This document shows, in pieces, positions 6,028 through 50,148 of a stretch of DNA of 64,000 nucleotides. The translations under genes were made by a program, and so were the position numbers. Source of the DNA: Parcubacteria group bacterium (GTDB lineage Bacteria > Patescibacteriota > Minisyncoccia > Phycocordibacterales > 21-14-all-47-15); the NCBI GenBank assembly GCA_016181845.1, contig JACOYO010000004.1:15827-79826 (forward strand), written 5' to 3'. The notes beneath the pieces were generated by a model. It was not told where the DNA came from and did no database searches. It worked only from the letters and a program-made list of their open reading frames with translations. The stretch's first letter is position 1, and every line of letters starts with the position of its first letter.

Positions 6028-6732
6028 ATGATTACTTACCATATCATCACCCTATTTCCGGAAATTGTACGCGCGTATACCGACGTGTCTATCATCGGGC
6101 GGGCGCAGGAAAGGAAAAAAATAAAAGTGCGGGTATACAACACGCGAGATTTTACGCGCGACAAGCATAAAAGAATTGACGGACGACCGTACGGAGGCGG
6201 TCCAGGTATGGTGATGCAGGCGGAGCCCATTTTGAAAGCTGTCAAAAAAGCGATTGGCGGAAAAAAGAATAAAAAAGTAAAAATTGTTTTGCTCTCGCCA
6301 AACGGAAAGCAATTTACCAACAAGACGGCTCTTGATTTTTCAAAAAAATATACAGATATTGTTTTCATCGCCGGACGATACGAGGGGATTGACGCGCGCG
6401 TGAAAAAAATCCTGTCCGCCCAAGGCGGATCCGCCTTGGGCGGAAAAGCTTCCATAGAAGAATGGTCAGTCGGTCCATATATTGTTACCGGCGGGGAATT
6501 GCCATCACTCATCATGCTTGATGCGATCACTCGTCAGATTTCTGGCGTTTTGGGCAAAGATGAATCTGTTGAAGAAAAACGCATTGCCGGAAAAGAAGTC
6601 TATACGCGCCCGGAATCGCTTGTGTTTGCCGGCAAAAAATATATCGTTCCAAAAGTCCTCCGCTCCGGCCACCATGAAAAAATAGAAAAATATCGCCGAA
6701 AAAATAAAAAGTTATCCACACTTATACAATGA
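6028..6732 (+). CDS. trmD: tRNA (guanine37-N1)-methyltransferase
   Basis: SPOUT/TrmD signature (ITLFPE..., GRYEGIDARV, VGPYIVTGGELP). rimM is missing between the KH gene and trmD. Confidence 0.9.
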   Translation: MITYHIITLFPEIVRAYTDVSIIGRAQERKKIKVRVYNTRDFTRDKHKRIDGRPYGGGPGMVMQAEPILKAVKKAIGGKKNKKVKIVLLSPNGKQFTNKTALDFSKKYTDIVFIAGRYEGIDARVKKILSAQGGSALGGKASIEEWSVGPYIVTGGELPSLIMLDAITRQISGVLGKDESVEEKRIAGKEVYTRPESLVFAGKKYIVPKVLRSGHHEKIEKYRRKNKKLSTLIQ

Positions 6733-26246: not shown

Positions 26247-27392
26247 ATGGCTTTGGGAATCGGCATCGTTGGTTTACCGAACGTGGGGAAGTCCACGCTT
26301 TTTAACGCGCTTACCAAAAAATCGGTGCCGGCGGAAAATTATCCTTTTTGCACAATTGATCCTTCGGTGGGCGTGGTTGCTGTGCCGGACCTACGGCTTT
26401 CTAAACTTTCGACATTGTCAAAATCTGCAAAAACAATTCCCGCGGCGATAGAATTTGTGGATATTGCGGGATTGGTGAAAGGCGCTTCAGCGGGCGAGGG
26501 ATTAGGAAATAAATTTTTGGCGAATATCCGCGAAGTAGATGCCATTTTGGAAGTGGTGCGGATTTTTCCCGCCCAAGGCGGGTCCGCCTCGGGCGGAGAC
26601 GTTGTTCATGTATATGGAGAGATAGACCCAATGAGAGATATTGAAGTTATCAATCTTGAATTGATGATGGCGGATTTAGAGACGGTTACAAAAAGACTTG
26701 GAAATTTAGAAAAAGATGTGAAACGTGGAGACAAAGATGCTTTGGATGAAAAAGAAGTCCTTGAAAAAATTGCCGCGACACTAGAGGCCGGGAAGCTCGC
26801 GAAAGATATTTTCCAAAATGTTGAAAATGTTGGACATCCGATGTCCAACATTGAAGGAGTGGTTAAAAAACTTCATTTACTTACCATGAAGCCGATTTTA
26901 TACGCGCTCAACAAAAAATCCGGAGCAAAAAATCTTGATGAAGCGAAAGATGAACGCTGGGAGAAGCTCATGCGGTTTTTCAAAGATAAGAACGCTCAAT
27001 ATGTCATTTTTGACGCGAAGGTGGAAGACGAGCTGAAAGAATTTGCCGGAGAAGAAAAAGAAACATTTCGCAGAGAGCTTGGCGCAGAAGAGGGCGACGG
27101 GATAGACGCGCTTATTTCCGCAAGCTATACGTTGCTCGGATTGATTACTTATTTTACGACCGGTGAAGACGAAACGCGCGCGTGGACGATTAAAAAAGGA
27201 TGGACGGCGCCCGAGGCAGGCACGGCGATTCATACCGACTTCAAAGATAAATTTATTCGCGCTGAAGTGATTTGGTGGCAAGATTTGCTCACTGCCGGTT
27301 CTTATGTTGTTGCTAGAGAAAAAGGGCTTCTTCGCACCGAGGGCAAGGATTACATTGTGCAAGACGGAGATGTAATTGAATTTAAGATTTAG
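26247..27392 (+). CDS. ychF: Ribosome-binding ATPase YchF (Obg-like GTPase family)
   Basis: G1 GIVGLPNVGKSTLFNALT and the C-terminal TGS domain. It contains an in-frame copy of palindrome family P2 at 26826-26852. Confidence 0.9.
   Translation: MALGIGIVGLPNVGKSTLFNALTKKSVPAENYPFCTIDPSVGVVAVPDLRLSKLSTLSKSAKTIPAAIEFVDIAGLVKGASAGEGLGNKFLANIREVDAILEVVRIFPAQGGSASGGDVVHVYGEIDPMRDIEVINLELMMADLETVTKRLGNLEKDVKRGDKDALDEKEVLEKIAATLEAGKLAKDIFQNVENVGHPMSNIEGVVKKLHLLTMKPILYALNKKSGAKNLDEAKDERWEKLMRFFKDKNAQYVIFDAKVEDELKEFAGEEKETFRRELGAEEGDGIDALISASYTLLGLITYFTTGEDETRAWTIKKGWTAPEAGTAIHTDFKDKFIRAEVIWWQDLLTAGSYVVAREKGLLRTEGKDYIVQDGDVIEFKI
26826..26852. repeat. Family P2 palindrome AATGTTGGACAT-CCG-ATGTCCAACATT lying inside the ychF coding sequence
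   Basis: The same palindrome (with its spacer inverted) as the intergenic copies at 38472-38494 and 61353-61379. Here it encodes NVGHPMSNI. Confidence 0.55.
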
Positions 27393-36823: not shown

Positions 36824-36958
36824 TCTTTCTTCGTCATATATTTTTGATAGACGCGCATTCCGCCCTGGGCGGATGCCATGCTCCTCCGACAGTATCGTCG
36901 GGGTCCGCAATGTCTCTCAAAAATTATGATTCAGAGCGAGTTTTGTAATCTTAGATAA
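36824..36958. mobile_element. MITE-like element, copy 1 (terminal inverted repeats CAAAACTC / GAGTTTTG)
   Basis: Shares the framework ...aaaactct..tttttgatagacgcgcat.c-[hairpin]-...cgcaatgtctctcaaaaa.tatgatt...gagttttgtaat with 40684-40822. Its internal hairpin is ccgccctgggcgg. Confidence 0.5.
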
Positions 36959-40683: not shown

Positions 40684-40822
40684 TTACAAAACTCTACTTC
40701 ATCATGAATTTTTGATAGACGCGCATAATCCTGCTTGCGAGCAGGATTTGCTATGCTCGTTTTGCTTGAGAGCAAAACTCCGCAATGTCTCTCAAAAACT
40801 ATGATTTCATCGAGTTTTGTAA
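40684..40822. mobile_element. MITE-like element, copy 2
   Basis: TIRs ttacaaaactc / gagttttgtaa. Its internal hairpin is atcctgcttgcgagcaggat, differing from copy 1. Confidence 0.5.
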
Positions 40823-43699: not shown

Positions 43700-43840
43700 G
43701 ATATACCACCTCCTTCGTTTTTAAATTTTCAACGATGTTGAAAAATCTTTTTTAACCATATCTTATTTTTAATAAAAGTCAATATTTTCATCAAAAAAGC
43801 TAGATTTTTAACTAAAATCTGTGGTATGATTTTTTTAACT

Positions 43841-43916
43841 GGCCCTATCGTCCCCGCCCAGGGCGGGCAGGTAACGGTTAGGACATCGGCTTTTCAAGCC
43901 GGTAATAGTAATATAT
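43841..43916 (+). pseudogene. tRNA-Glu(UUC)-like 5' portion with a 19-nt GC hairpin insertion in the D-region and no T-arm or 3' acceptor strand
   Basis: GGCCCUAUCGUC-[ccccgcccagggcgggcagg]-UAACGGUUAGGACAUCGGCUUUUCAAGCCGG, then AU-rich sequence. The first 12 nt and the D-loop are identical to the downstream tRNA-Glu. Confidence 0.4.
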
Positions 43917-43988
43917 GGCCCTATCGTCTAACGGTTAGGACACCGCCTTCTCAAGGCGGGAATCAGAGTTCGATTCTCTGTAGGGTCA
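43917..43988 (+). tRNA. tRNA-Glu (anticodon CUC), no encoded CCA
   Basis: Acceptor GGCCCUA/UAGGGUC, anticodon loop UUCUCAA, T-loop UUCGAUU. Confidence 0.8.
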
Positions 43989-43990
43989 AA

Positions 43991-44036
43991 AATTGCGTAA
44001 AGCAGGTAAACTGCTTTACCTGCGGGCAATTTTTGA
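43991..44036 (+). terminator. Nested hairpin plus T-run after tRNA-Glu
   Basis: aattgc-gtaaagcagg-taaa-ctgctttac-ctgcgg-gcaatttttg. Confidence 0.4.
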
Positions 44037-44276
44037 AGCCGTAGCCATGTCGCTCAATTTTGTCGCCACTCCTCCCATCGTCTCATTAACGCAAAAGGAT
44101 TAAGGCATTTAAAATTTAAAACAGATAAACAAGCACGACCGAGTCACGATCAATATACTAGATTAAAACTGCTCCATCTTGCACCGCAGATTCTAAAAGA
44201 ATCGCACACCCTTCAGGGGGTTTGGAAAACCAAACAGTTTGAAATACAAAAAACAAACAATCGCTGGGAACGAATT

Positions 44277-45124: not shown

Positions 45125-45245
45125 AATGAAAACAAAAAGCCCACCACGGGTCTCCGCCGAAGCGGACATACCGGTTTCCCGGTATGGCCAGTGAAGCAAC
45201 CCCATGATGGGTTTTCTATGCTTCACTGGTCTTTTTTCACCATGC
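45125..45245. ncRNA. Candidate structured RNA or complex terminator (four consecutive stem-loops)
   Basis: Hairpins agcccaccacgggt, ccgccgaagcgg, ccggtttcccgg and an 11-bp stem ccagtgaagca/tgcttcactgg around an inner cccatgatggg hairpin, followed by a T-run. No protein-coding potential. Confidence 0.3.
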
Positions 45246-45429
45246 CCGACAAAAAATTGTCTTGCCGAGTTTAGGCTACTTTTTGATTAAATTGTATTTC
45301 CTATAATTTTATAGTAGCATCAAAGGCAATGTTCGTCTACTCAATCAAGTTTCCTGTTCTGGACCAATGATAAAAATGAAAAACAAAGGGTAGCCCTTTG
45401 TTTTTCCGTATACTGGAGTAAATAAAAAC

Positions 45430-46335: not shown

Positions 46336-47058
46336 ATGAACAAGGAAGAACAAAAAAATTCCGATGCAGCGATTGAATATGTGAAAAAACACAGTGATGA
46401 AATTATACAAAAATTTGCCAGCATCAAAACGTTTCCACTAAGTGAATATCCAGTGTCAGTGTTTATGGCGGGCTCTCCCGGGGCTGGGAAGACAGAATTC
46501 TCACAAGAAGTGTTGGATGTGTGGTTTGGGGACTCCGACATACAAGATGCGGTGCGTATTGACCCGGACGAAGTGAGGAAAATAATCCCTGGTTATGATG
46601 GTACTAATGCGTATCTTTTCCAGGCAGCTGTTTCTGTGGGTGTGGAAAAGATACATGATAGTGTTCTAAAATATGGACAAAACTTTATTCTTGATGGTAC
46701 ATTATCTATATTTAAAAAAGCAAAAGAAAATATTCAGCGTTCCATTGATAAACATAGATTAGTTTTTATTTTTTACATATATCAAGACCCTCTGGTAGCA
46801 TGGGCGTTTACCAAAGAGAGGGAGGTCAAAGAGGGGCGTAAAATTCCAAAGCAAGCTTTTATAGAACAATTCTTTGGTGCCAGGGATTCAGTAAATCAAA
46901 TTAAGGAATATTTCGGTGACAAAATTAAAGTATATTTGGTGGAAAAAAATTTTGAAAATAAGATTCAAAAAATAATGATAAATATAACAAAAATTGACTC
47001 CCATATATCATTTGGTTATAATAAAGAAACTCTTACAAAAGCATTGAAAAATATATGA
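46336..47058 (+). CDS. P-loop kinase of the zeta-toxin / AAA_33-like family
   Basis: Walker A FMAGSPGAGKTEF near residue 40 and a downstream ILDGTLS motif, in a ~240-aa protein. This is the zeta/PezT-like architecture. Confidence 0.5.
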   Translation: MNKEEQKNSDAAIEYVKKHSDEIIQKFASIKTFPLSEYPVSVFMAGSPGAGKTEFSQEVLDVWFGDSDIQDAVRIDPDEVRKIIPGYDGTNAYLFQAAVSVGVEKIHDSVLKYGQNFILDGTLSIFKKAKENIQRSIDKHRLVFIFYIYQDPLVAWAFTKEREVKEGRKIPKQAFIEQFFGARDSVNQIKEYFGDKIKVYLVEKNFENKIQKIMINITKIDSHISFGYNKETLTKALKNI

Positions 47059-48042: not shown

Positions 48043-48053
48043 ATTATGAATTT

Positions 48054-48138
48054 GAAAAACTCTTTCTGAATCATAGTTTTTGATAGACGCGTATTCCGCC
48101 CAGGGCGGATGCTCTGCTCGAAACACTATTTTGTAATT
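48054..48138. mobile_element. MITE-like element, copy 3 (internally truncated)
   Basis: aaaaactctttctgaatcatagtttttgatagacgcgtattccgcccagggcggatgctctgctcg...attttgtaat; it lacks the cgcaatgtctctcaaaaa segment. Confidence 0.45.
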
Positions 48139-48140
48139 AA

Positions 48141-48217
48141 GACGTCCGACCTCTGGGTTGGTAAAATATCGGCATTTGCCACAAATAAAATAATTACCAC
48201 ATCAGAGGTCGGACGTC
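48141..48217. repeat. Family P4 long-hairpin element, copy 2, directly upstream of dnaK
   Basis: gacgtccgacctctg-ggttggtaa-aatatcggcatttgccacaaataaaataa-ttaccacat-cagaggtcggacgtc. Its arms differ from copy 1 by compensatory changes (T:A to C:G). Confidence 0.55.
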
Positions 48218-48252
48218 TTACATAAAGTAAATAAATAATTGATAAAAAACGT

Positions 48253-50148
48253 ATGTCAAAAATTTTAGGAATAGATTTGGGGACAACTAATTCGGCAATG
48301 GCCATTATTGAAGGAGGCGTGCCGAAGATTATAGAAAACGTGGAAGGCAACCGCACGACGCCGTCTGTTGTCGCGCTTGGAAAAGGAGGGGAGCGGTTGG
48401 TTGGCTTGCTTGCGAAAAGGCAGGCGGTCACTAATCCTGAAAACACGATGTATGGCATCAAGCGGCTCATCGGGCATCGTTTTGATGATAAGGAGGTGCA
48501 AAAAGATAAAGCGTCGGTGCCGTTTCATATAGAGAAATCCGATGACGGCGGGGTGAAGGTGAAGATGGGCGATAAATGGTATCGGCCGGAAGAAATCTCG
48601 GCGATGGTGCTTCAGAAGCTGAAGCAGGACGCGGAAGCAAAGCTCGGAGAAAAAATCACCGAAGCGATTATTACCGTGCCGGCATATTTCAGTGATTCAC
48701 AGCGAAAGGCGACCAAAGACGCGGGTAAAATCGCTGGGCTTGAGGTAAAGCGTATCATCAATGAGCCGACGGCCGCGGCGCTTGCGTATGGTTTTGATAA
48801 AAAGAAAGATGAGAAAATCGTGGTGTACGATTTTGGCGGAGGCACGTTTGACGTGTCGGTGCTTGAAGTGGGCGCGGACGTGATTGAAGTGAAATCCACA
48901 GATGGCGATAGCCACATGGGAGGCGAAGATATAGACCGCGAATTGGTGAAATGGATAGGAGAGCAGTTTAAAAAAGAAAGCGGCATTGATATTTTGAAAG
49001 ATACCCTGGCGCTTCAGCGCCTTAAAGAAGCTGCGGAAAAAGCGAAGCACGAACTCTCCACGACCACTGAAACGGAAATCAATATCCCGTTTATCACTTC
49101 TGGAGCGGATGGGCCAAAACACTTGCTTTTGAAACTCTCGCGCGCGACGCTTGAAATACTCACTAAATCTTTCATTGACCGGTCTATTGAAATCACCAAG
49201 CGCGCGATGGAAAATTCGCCGTTTAAGATAGGTGATATCGATGAGGTGGTGCTTGTCGGTGGGCAGACCAGAATGCCCGCGATTGTCGCGGCAGTAAAGA
49301 CCTATTTCGGCAAAGAGCCAAATCTTTCTATCAATCCTGATGAAGTGGTGGCGCTCGGCGCCGCGGTGCAGGCGGGGATATTGCAGGGGGATGTGAAAGA
49401 CGTGCTTTTGCTTGATGTTATACCGCTTTCGCTCGGGATTGAGACGATGGGCGGAGTGGCGACAAAATTGATTGAGAAAAACACGACGATACCGACTTCA
49501 AAATCACAGGTCTTTTCAACGGCTTCTGATAGCCAGACGAGTGTTGAGATTCATATCACGCAGGGAGAGCGGCCGATGGCGGCAGACAACAAAAGTCTCG
49601 GGCGATTTATTTTGGACGGTATTCCGCCGGCGCCGCGCGGTATGCCGCAAATTGAAGTGACCTTTGATATTGATGCAAACGGGATTTTGCAAGTGAAAGC
49701 GAAAGACAAGTCTTCAGGTAAAGAGCAGTCAATCCGGATTGAAGCAAGCTCGGGACTCACCGATGCCGATATTGCGCGCATGAAGCAGGATGCCGATATG
49801 CACGCGGAAGAAGACCATAAAAAGAAAGAGACGGCAGAGGCGCGCAATCTTGCCGAACAGCTCGCATACACTGCCGAAAAAGCGCTCAAAGACGCGGAAG
49901 GAAAAATTACTGATGAGATAAAGACGAGCGTACGGGCAAAAATTGATGAGGTAAAGAAAGTTAAAGATGGTGTTGACGCAGAAACGATTAAAAAAGCGAC
50001 CGAAGCACTTTCAACCGAGATGCAAAAAATCGGCGAGCATATGGCAAAAAATACCCCGCAACAAGGAGGTGCCCAAGAGGGGAACGTCCGCGATGCAAAA
50101 GTAGAAGAGGACAAAAAAGACGATGGCGGTACTGCTGAAAATAAATAA
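48253..50148 (+). CDS. dnaK: Molecular chaperone DnaK (Hsp70)
   Basis: [22 protein letters not shown] and the other Hsp70 signatures; 631 aa. Confidence 0.95.

Follow-up and report, generated by a model that had tools for sequence, protein, structure and literature searches.

Free-standing GIY-YIG homing endonuclease genes are found beside tRNA genes, as in the case of phage T4 SegB (PMC2330249; PMC13096335), and the rRNA genes of bacteria of the candidate phyla radiation (CPR) contain insertion sequences, some of which encode GIY-YIG proteins, in an account that does not mention tRNA (PMC11270868). Here we describe a related arrangement at a tRNA-Glu locus of a Parcubacteria group bacterium. 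The sequence analysed is a 64-kb stretch of contig JACOYO010000004.1 (hereafter the window), and its subject is the element at positions 43841-43916, a truncated copy of tRNA-Glu(UUC) that is interrupted by a GC-rich hairpin and lies directly 5' of an intact tRNA-Glu(CUC) gene. In relatives the same layout holds a small GIY-YIG gene between the copy and the tRNA.

The family to which this copy belongs resembles SegB in that a GIY-YIG gene occupies a tRNA gene region, is polymorphic for presence and absence, has a patchy, selfish-looking distribution and has a conserved tRNA as its apparent target. Unlike SegB, the Patescibacteria proteins measure only about 83 amino acids (aa), consist of the catalytic domain alone, are of the Slx1/UPF0213 type, and are chromosomal and absent from the viral contigs scanned. 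Their open reading frame (ORF) also overlaps the tRNA 5' end and is always accompanied by a duplicated 5' part of the tRNA that is split by a hairpin. With the CPR rRNA insertions the family shares a phylum-level group, a protein superfamily and a location in genes for structural RNAs, where the inserts fall at the top or base of a stem-loop; those insertions lie inside the rRNA genes, whereas here the tRNA gene stays intact and a partial duplicate bears the insert. Our literature searches for an association of GIY-YIG genes with tRNA-Glu in CPR bacteria or Patescibacteria returned SegB and the CPR rRNA-insertion paper alone, and a fusion of GIY-YIG genes to the 5' ends of tRNAs, accompanied by hairpin-split duplicates, is apparently undescribed in the literature searched.

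Three further systems invite comparison. Classical attL/attR sites at tRNA genes duplicate the 3' part of the tRNA and belong to kilobase-sized elements, genomic islands and prophages, with a tyrosine integrase. As there, a partial tRNA duplicate adjoins an intact gene whose function is kept after insertion, but the tRNA-Glu family duplicates the 5' part, its cargo is 0-250 nucleotides (nt) or a single ORF of about 250 nt, and it has no integrase. The rtT repeats of the E. coli tyrT operon (Rfam family rtT) repeat the tRNA 3' end downstream of the tRNA. They are likewise repeated partial tRNA sequences co-transcribed with a tRNA gene, as our copies probably are; the copies of the window's family, in contrast, are of the tRNA 5' part, lie upstream and come with a hairpin insert and a nuclease gene, both lacking in rtT. 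Rickettsia palindromic elements (RPEs) and repetitive extragenic palindromes (REPs) with their associated tyrosine transposases (RAYTs) are dispersed short palindromes, found in small genomes, that also insert in frame into essential protein genes. The palindromes of the window are dispersed in the same manner and have entered the reading frames of trmD and ychF. Their units, however, measure only 13-28 nt and have a very high G+C content, and the RAYT-like gene of this genome carries a different palindrome.

Anatomy of the element 5' of tRNA-Glu(CUC)

Positions 43841-43916 do not constitute a tRNA gene. They hold an exact copy of positions 1-47 of tRNA-Glu(UUC), split by a hairpin, between a promoter-like site and the intact tRNA-Glu(CUC) gene. 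The parts are as follows.

43822-43830, + strand: extended -10 promoter-like site TGgTATGAT, about 10 nt 5' of the fragment, recognised by its sequence and putative in function
43841-43852, + strand: copy of tRNA-Glu positions 1-12, GGCCCTATCGTC (acceptor 5' strand, positions 8-9 and D-stem 5' strand), identical to 43917-43928
43853-43871, + strand: 19-nt GC hairpin insert CCCGCCCAGGGCGGGCAGG, that is CCCGCC-CAG-GGCGGG plus a CAGG tail, in the D-loop slot
43872-43906, + strand: copy of tRNA-Glu(UUC) positions 13-47, TAACGGTTAGGAC-ATCGGC-TTTTCAA-GCCGG-TAAT, a direct repeat with 43929-43963
43907-43916, + strand: AT-rich 10-nt junction or spacer AGTAATATAT, the site of the GIY-YIG ORF or other cargo in relatives
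43917-43988, + strand: intact tRNA-Glu(CUC), found by ARAGORN and by the Rfam tRNA model (RF00005, 61.3 bits)
43989-44040, + strand: long terminator-like hairpin 3' of the tRNA, AAAAATTGC...GCAATTTTT, at a position conserved in relatives

A preliminary description of the window had recognised a truncated tRNA-Glu(UUC)-like sequence with a 19-nt hairpin directly 5' of tRNA-Glu(CUC), and had noted that its first 12 nt and its D-loop are identical to those of that gene; both statements hold. The segment after the hairpin supplies the D-loop and D-stem 3' strand, the anticodon arm (TTC at 43893-43895) and, as TAAT, 4 nt of the variable region. When the hairpin is removed, 47 nt remain with zero substitutions relative to positions 1-47 of the tRNA-Glu(UUC) of the clade, and a composite of these 47 nt with the last 25 nt of the CUC gene matches, without a difference in its 72 positions (72/72), the intact tRNA-Glu(UUC) genes found in two other genomes (loci L009 and L106). 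The anticodon arm is a perfect UUC arm that differs from the arm of the adjacent CUC gene at 6 positions. After position 47 the sequence turns AT-rich, and neither a T-arm nor a 3' acceptor strand follows. ARAGORN does not call the fragment as a tRNA, its one call here being 43916-43989, and the Rfam tRNA model gives no match there even at E<=10; the fragment thus lacks the complete cloverleaf, T-arm, 3' acceptor strand and visibility to tRNA finders of a functional tRNA gene. The hairpin-split fragment is identical in an independent Logan assembly (SRR12113430, locus L001) and is therefore no assembly artefact.

The insert alone has a predicted fold of -10.7 kcal/mol, and the fragment as a whole is predicted to form two hairpins (-27.6 kcal/mol, z=-2.3), more stable than those of shuffled sequences. 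Upstream, TGgTATGAT resembles the TGtTATAcT-type sites that occupy the same position 5' of tRNA-Glu, or of its 5' copy, at other loci, and we regard it as the putative promoter of both the fragment and the tRNA. A simple sigma-70 scan for -35 and -10 boxes did not report it, because it has no -35 hexamer. Downstream, the terminator region is about 82% identical to that of two relatives (L028 and L008) over 135 nt, tRNA included. Rfam searches of the window and 15 related loci, at gathering as well as E-value thresholds, matched tRNAs and the LOOT RNA alone, so the upstream fragment, like the downstream elements described below, belongs to no known family.

The truncation had raised the question of whether this genome can decode GAA at all. 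We consider such a problem very unlikely. GAA accounts for 290 of 4243 codons in nine conserved genes, and a use this heavy makes an intact tRNA-Glu(UUC) all but necessary. Moreover, the Logan contig of locus L001 ends (window position 43901) exactly where its k-mers become shared with canonical tRNA-Glu(UUC), and for this reason too an intact gene is expected in the genome. The sequence examined for this organism comes to about 72 kb; neither a tRNA-Glu(UUC) nor a GIY-YIG gene is present in the roughly 8.5 kb past the right end of the window (L144) or in short contigs on the left, and a screen of 118 genome loci with the window's own repeats returned no locus from the same genome.

A family of split copies and its nuclease gene

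The 31-mer at 43872-43902 occurs exactly in at least 118 tRNA-Glu(UUC) genes of Patescibacteria, and from at least 118 genome matches we read 116 tRNA-Glu loci with their upstream flanks. In about 36 of the 116, the intact gene is preceded by a partial 5' copy of tRNA-Glu, which in turn follows a TG-extended -10 promoter-like site. These copies are hairpin-split or remodelled, and the gene that they precede may be of the UUC or the CUC type. The window element, with its positions 1-12, GC hairpin and TAACGGTTAGGA(C), co-oriented 5' of an intact tRNA-Glu and 3' of the promoter-like site, is a member of this family, which is present at about one-third of the Patescibacteria tRNA-Glu loci examined. 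In none of the loci examined does a full-length tRNA-Glu carry the hairpin; the copies that bear it are always truncated.

A metagenome scan with the slot pattern GGCCYTATCGTCC...GGTAACGGTTAG returned 21 loci, and all of them place a hairpin-split copy upstream of an intact tRNA-Glu (CUC in 10, UUC in 6). Between copy and gene lie a GIY-YIG ORF (8 loci), 14-38 nt alone (6 distinct loci) or inverted duplications of the tRNA 3' flank (5 loci), and the state of the window matches the class with 14-38 nt. One member of this class (L136) has the same CUC anticodon arm as the window.

The occupants of the slot vary far more than the slot itself. Among 16 distinct inserts, that of the window included, all but one have a G+C content of 55-90% and most are clear hairpins. 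The arrangement GTC-hairpin-TAACGG with a CAGG tail recurs in L099, L051, L116, L098 and L135, among others; L099 and L051 have GC hairpins exactly in the window's slot, followed by the tail, and in L051 a CCTACC/GGTAGG stem replaces CCCGCC/GGCGGG. The closest relative of the window's insert is that of L135, CCCGCC-TGCC-GGCGGG-CAGG, which bridges to the common palindrome CCTGCCTGCCGGCAGGCAGG. Because slot and tail are common to relatives with different stems, we take the slot to be ancestral to the element family rather than a fresh hit by a hairpin from elsewhere in the genome. The junction also has a counterpart: a Candidatus Lloydbacteria locus (L076) reads GCCGGTAAT-AGTAATACAAT-GGCCC, where AGTAATACAAT is nearly the junction of the window, while its D-region is different and its downstream gene is UUC. 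Among the roughly 36 genome loci with a copy, 16 share a 'canonical' two-hairpin form without an ORF, recognisable by a common derived hairpin extension between spacers that cannot be aligned.

At eight genome loci (L007, L008, L024, L042, L068, L074, L098 and L116) a GIY-YIG ORF of about 83 aa lies directly 3' of the 5' copy, and 6 further metagenome loci bring the ORF-bearing total to 14. All 8 ORF-bearing genome loci have the 5' copy, as against 28 of the 108 others (Fisher p=5e-5). The ORF is interwoven with the tRNA sequence. Its start codon falls 5-11 nt after the AGGA of the D-arm of the copy, which we infer to be its ribosome-binding site; it overlaps the first 13-21 nt of the intact tRNA-Glu; and it stops in the D-loop of that gene, at the TAA of GTC-TAA-CGG or the TAG of GGT-TAG-G. 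The C-termini of 12 of 13 close homologues in the protein collection read ...GPIV or ...ALSSNG (or variants of 1-2 residues), which is the translated 5' end of tRNA-Glu. In the wider GIY-YIG family (22,717 clusters at E<=1e-3), strict tRNA-Glu tails occur in 11 of the top 150.

A Pfam search of the protein finds GIY-YIG at E=3e-16. The nearest solved structures are the UPF0213 proteins 1zg2 and 1ywl, followed by SLX1 and then I-TevI, and the proteins are placed in the minimal prokaryotic Slx1-like group of GIY-YIG proteins of Dunin-Horkawicz et al. (PMC1564403). Proteins beside identical palindromes of 18-20 nt are 35-61% identical to one another. The gene is polymorphic for presence and absence at an otherwise conserved site: L127 and L138 have flanks, hairpin copy and tRNA in common and differ only by 240 nt (the ORF) in the one against 17 nt in the other, and L134 stands with L138 in the comparison with L127; this polymorphism is seen in relatives, not in the lineage of the window. 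The 64-kb window itself contains no GIY-YIG ORF detectable by tblastn or profile hidden Markov model. Two patterns scanned against viral contigs gave 0 matches, and there is thus no sign of a phage-borne cassette.

The same design, a 5' copy with a GC hairpin in the D-loop followed by a GIY-YIG ORF and the tRNA, is also seen at tRNA-Ile(GAU) (L142, 1440-1815), around tRNA-Val(GAC) (L007, 6600-7250) and, with an identical 20-nt palindrome, at a divergent type of tRNA-Glu (L143, 1530-1900).

Hairpins that hide the ribosome-binding site are known from phage homing-endonuclease genes. In the predicted fold of six ORF-bearing leaders, CCUAUCGU pairs with ACGG(U)UAGG under the GC hairpin and the AGGA is covered, so that the hairpin is predicted to conceal the ribosome-binding site of the ORF in a like manner. 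Processing by RNase P would strip the stop codon from the ORF mRNA. The GC insert would also halve a direct repeat of 25 nt, by which the cassette might otherwise be deleted.

Origin of the element

Given that relatives with the same layout hold a GIY-YIG gene between copy and tRNA, the window element looks like a decayed form. We therefore favour, as the probable origin, that it is a relic of a nuclease cassette that has lost its ORF and now forms the 5' leader of tRNA-Glu(CUC). On this hypothesis, a selfish nuclease cassette would have settled in a tRNA-Glu gene, with the 5' copy representing duplicated target sequence and the gene being restored. The nuclease ORF would later have been deleted in the lineage of the window, leaving 10 nt. 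Recombination between near-identical tRNA-Glu paralogues may have exchanged the downstream gene, as a result of which a UUC-type copy would now precede one of the CUC type. At present the upstream promoter most likely drives transcription of the fragment as a structured 5' leader of about 80 nt, which would fold into a long hairpin capped by the GC insert and then the anticodon-arm hairpin, and would be cut off by RNase P. On this account the fragment would decode nothing, and the reading of GAA would fall to an intact tRNA-Glu(UUC) gene at another site in the genome.

Several observations weigh against this history. The 10-nt junction contains no recognisable remnant of an ORF, and it is surprising that an old neutral relic should show no substitution at all in its 47 nt; so intact a copy points to an event of recent date, to gene conversion or to selection. 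Fragments that end at position 47, as that of the window does, precede inverted duplications of the tRNA 3' flank and not an ORF in six relatives (L044, L049, L104, L099, L123 and L132), and the window form could descend from this inverted-duplication type instead. The change may have run either way, by loss of the ORF or by its gain in an existing duplication. The proteins, moreover, consist of the catalytic domain alone, with no DNA-binding domain, and site-specific homing by them is therefore hypothetical. The expected intact UUC gene would lie outside the roughly 72 kb read.

The absence of an ORF remnant, the lack of a GIY-YIG gene in the window and the perfection of the UUC 5' part could all be explained if a tandem tRNA-Glu(UUC)-tRNA-Glu(CUC) pair had decayed, the first gene losing its T-arm and 3' end by deletion and gaining a hairpin with no cassette involved in this lineage. 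We consider this unlikely. The hairpin stands in the exact slot, with the CAGG tail, that marks nuclease-associated copies in many other genomes; the junction is common to L076, whose downstream gene is UUC; and a T-arm remnant is found in none of roughly 50 fragments.

Selection offers another explanation of the 47 unchanged positions, namely that the fragment gives rise to a structured 5' leader or small RNA with a function of its own (for example a mimic of a tRNA-Glu 5' half or of an anticodon arm), which might regulate processing or serve as a decoy. Consistent with this, the anticodon arm and junction are conserved between the window and L076 despite differing D-regions, the 16 canonical ORF-less loci keep their derived hairpin extension between unalignable spacers, a compensatory pair occurs in hairpin 1 and another in hairpin 2 of L086, and the folds exceed shuffles in stability. 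However, the covariation test on the 16 canonical elements gave a term of about 0 with most pairs invariant, a set too invariant to tell function from shared descent. The element is also missing from about 70% of loci, varies widely in length and content where it is present, and has no Rfam match, and gene conversion can preserve the tRNA-identical parts. We thus regard a selected function as improbable.

The preliminary description had also suggested that the fragment might be an attL-type remnant of an island to its right. The region at 44.0-47.4 kb is indeed lower in G+C, and a zeta-toxin gene and a LOOT RNA lie within it among orphan ORFs. Nevertheless, an origin by integrase can be set aside with little hesitation: the window has no second copy of the tRNA 3' end, the neighbouring ORFs tested contain no integrase domain, and the fragment is a 5' part that abuts the gene and not a 3' part displaced to the far end of an island, which is the opposite of the classical geometry.

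Least credible of all is that the perfectly preserved 5' part belongs to a split tRNA-Glu(UUC), to be joined in trans to a separately encoded 3' half or to share the T-arm and acceptor of the downstream gene. Nanoarchaeum has such a system, in which a single 3' half serves two 5' halves to give tRNA-Glu(UUC) and tRNA-Glu(CUC). Here, however, the search for a 3' half found neither one nor any further T-arm or acceptor 3' sequence in the window, the copy breaks off after position 47 and not at the canonical 37/38, there are no complementary joining sequences, the D-loop hairpin would disrupt the D-arm, and the homologous fragments of relatives serve as the 5' untranslated region of the nuclease gene. 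The archaeal splicing endonuclease is, to our knowledge, lacking in bacteria. Split tRNAs are discussed elsewhere (PMC2237900).

Dispersed hairpins and the meaning of the family

The core of the inserted hairpin recurs elsewhere in this genome, both in miniature inverted-repeat transposable element (MITE)-like elements and within genes.

48096-48108, + strand: exact hairpin core CCGCCCAGGGCGG in a MITE-like element between grpE and dnaK
36860-36872, - strand: exact hairpin core in another copy of the same MITE-like element
6416-6443, + strand: 28-nt double hairpin (one-mismatch core variant), in frame in trmD, an insertion relative to solved TrmD structures
26569-26596, + strand: 28-nt double hairpin, in frame in ychF, a 7-residue insertion relative to the YchF structure 1jal

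With 43854-43866 in the fragment itself, the two exact copies give three exact occurrences of the 13-mer, and one-mismatch variants of the core lie at 6416/6431 and 26569. On both strands of the window there are 9 core matches against 0.07 expected from shuffles, in agreement with the preliminary claim that the 13-nt identity with a MITE copy goes beyond chance; the match to that copy is exact, although it was first placed at 48099-48111, 3 nt off its true position. The insertions encode SAQGGSALGG in trmD and AQGGSASGG in ychF. The MITE-like element is 110-130 nt long, with conserved flanks and two internal hairpin slots, and is present at 36829-36940, 40685-40815 and 48046-48120, in each case just upstream of a gene (the nearest being smc and dnaK). 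Its copies differ in their hairpins (CCGCCCTGGGCGG as opposed to AATCCTGCTTGCGAGCAGGATT); both exact cores share one slot, in which the copy at 40685-40815 has a different hairpin.

The palindrome of a tRNA-Glu fragment in a relative, CCTGCCTGCGCAGGCAGG, is also found in frame in a 734-aa ORF (L138, 11434-11451), where it encodes LPAQAG, a parallel to trmD and ychF.

Many dispersed palindrome copies, some of them intragenic, are what REP and RPE families show, and it is plausible that the dispersed hairpin is a mobile or recombinogenic module, as first suggested. Its recurrence in MITE-like elements, trmD and ychF supports this idea. The corollary that the tRNA fragment was hit afresh by a MITE hairpin does not stand, given the ancestral slot.

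A gene for a Y1_Tnp protein (RAYT/IS200-like) lies in the same organism about 8 kb past the right end of the window (L144, 19245-19916). It has a REP-like palindrome, ACTGAGTGGCTCAACCACTAAGT, twice in frame (QLSGSTTKL) and on both flanks, and palindromes related to it (ACTTGGACGTCGGGTGTCCAAGT and others) occur in the window at 1801-1874, 27404, 38463, 51044 and 61346. This palindrome differs from the CCGCCC hairpin, and no enzyme is linked to the latter.

It is tempting to join the two phenomena. We offer, as a speculation that we consider somewhat doubtful, that the minimal Slx1-like GIY-YIG gene forms, with the GC palindrome, an undescribed two-part selfish system of Patescibacteria. A structure-specific nuclease would act on a cruciform or hairpin that accompanies its own gene, and the pair would colonise tRNA genes (Glu, Ile, Val) at their D-loop position and restore them by duplication of their 5' part; palindromes would also spread alone into MITE-like elements and in frame into essential protein genes. 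The identical palindromes beside proteins of only 35-61% identity would fit a sequence- or structure-specific partnership. If this were true, the window would hold a decayed cassette and six dispersed palindromes.

Other repeats and genes surround the locus. Just 3' of the tRNA terminator, 44054-44085 is an inverted copy (31 of 32 positions) of an internal piece of dnaK at 49440-49471, 5.3 kb away; it could have arrived as filler DNA when a break was repaired, or be an antisense element. A full-length LOOT RNA (Rfam RF03000, 79.4 bits) lies on the minus strand at 45153-45277, in the stretch of low G+C that separates tRNA-Glu from grpE, with orphan ORFs and the zeta-toxin gene (46336-47058) nearby. 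A 79-nt palindromic repeat with termini AGACGTCCGAC...GTCGGACGTC occurs at 2065-2143 and 48140-48218 (89% identical), once directly upstream of dnaK. Logan contigs of the same organism end exactly at the tRNA k-mer already mentioned (L001) and at the trmD palindrome (L146, window 6444); these repeats thus fragment short-read assemblies. In many Patescibacteria, two families of elements of 130-160 nt are found 3' of tRNA-Glu, at 18 and 23 of the 116 loci (L014, L020, L026, L029, L037, L048, L077, L096, L099, L100 and others). These elements, which are sometimes arrayed and have no Rfam match, open with an inverted duplicate of the tRNA 3' end, and the sequence of their internal hairpins varies between loci while the pairing is kept.

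The window copy is probably an ordinary relic of the hairpin-split tRNA-Glu cassette family. It does not encode another isoacceptor for Glu, and the worry about GAA decoding is almost certainly unfounded. What the family reveals is that tiny GIY-YIG genes, reduced to the catalytic domain, take a stop codon from the tRNA D-loop and apparently a ribosome-binding site from the D-arm, and that they do so recurrently in a very large uncultured group. The protein tails ...GPIV and ...ALSSNG provide a simple database marker by which further cassettes can be found. If the cassettes are mobile, few known homing-type elements that are self-contained would be smaller, and the cassettes would provide a handle on the behaviour of the abundant 'GIY-YIG nuclease family proteins' of Patescibacteria genomes, on tRNA-Glu flanks as hot spots of rearrangement and on GC palindromes that stand in frame in essential genes.

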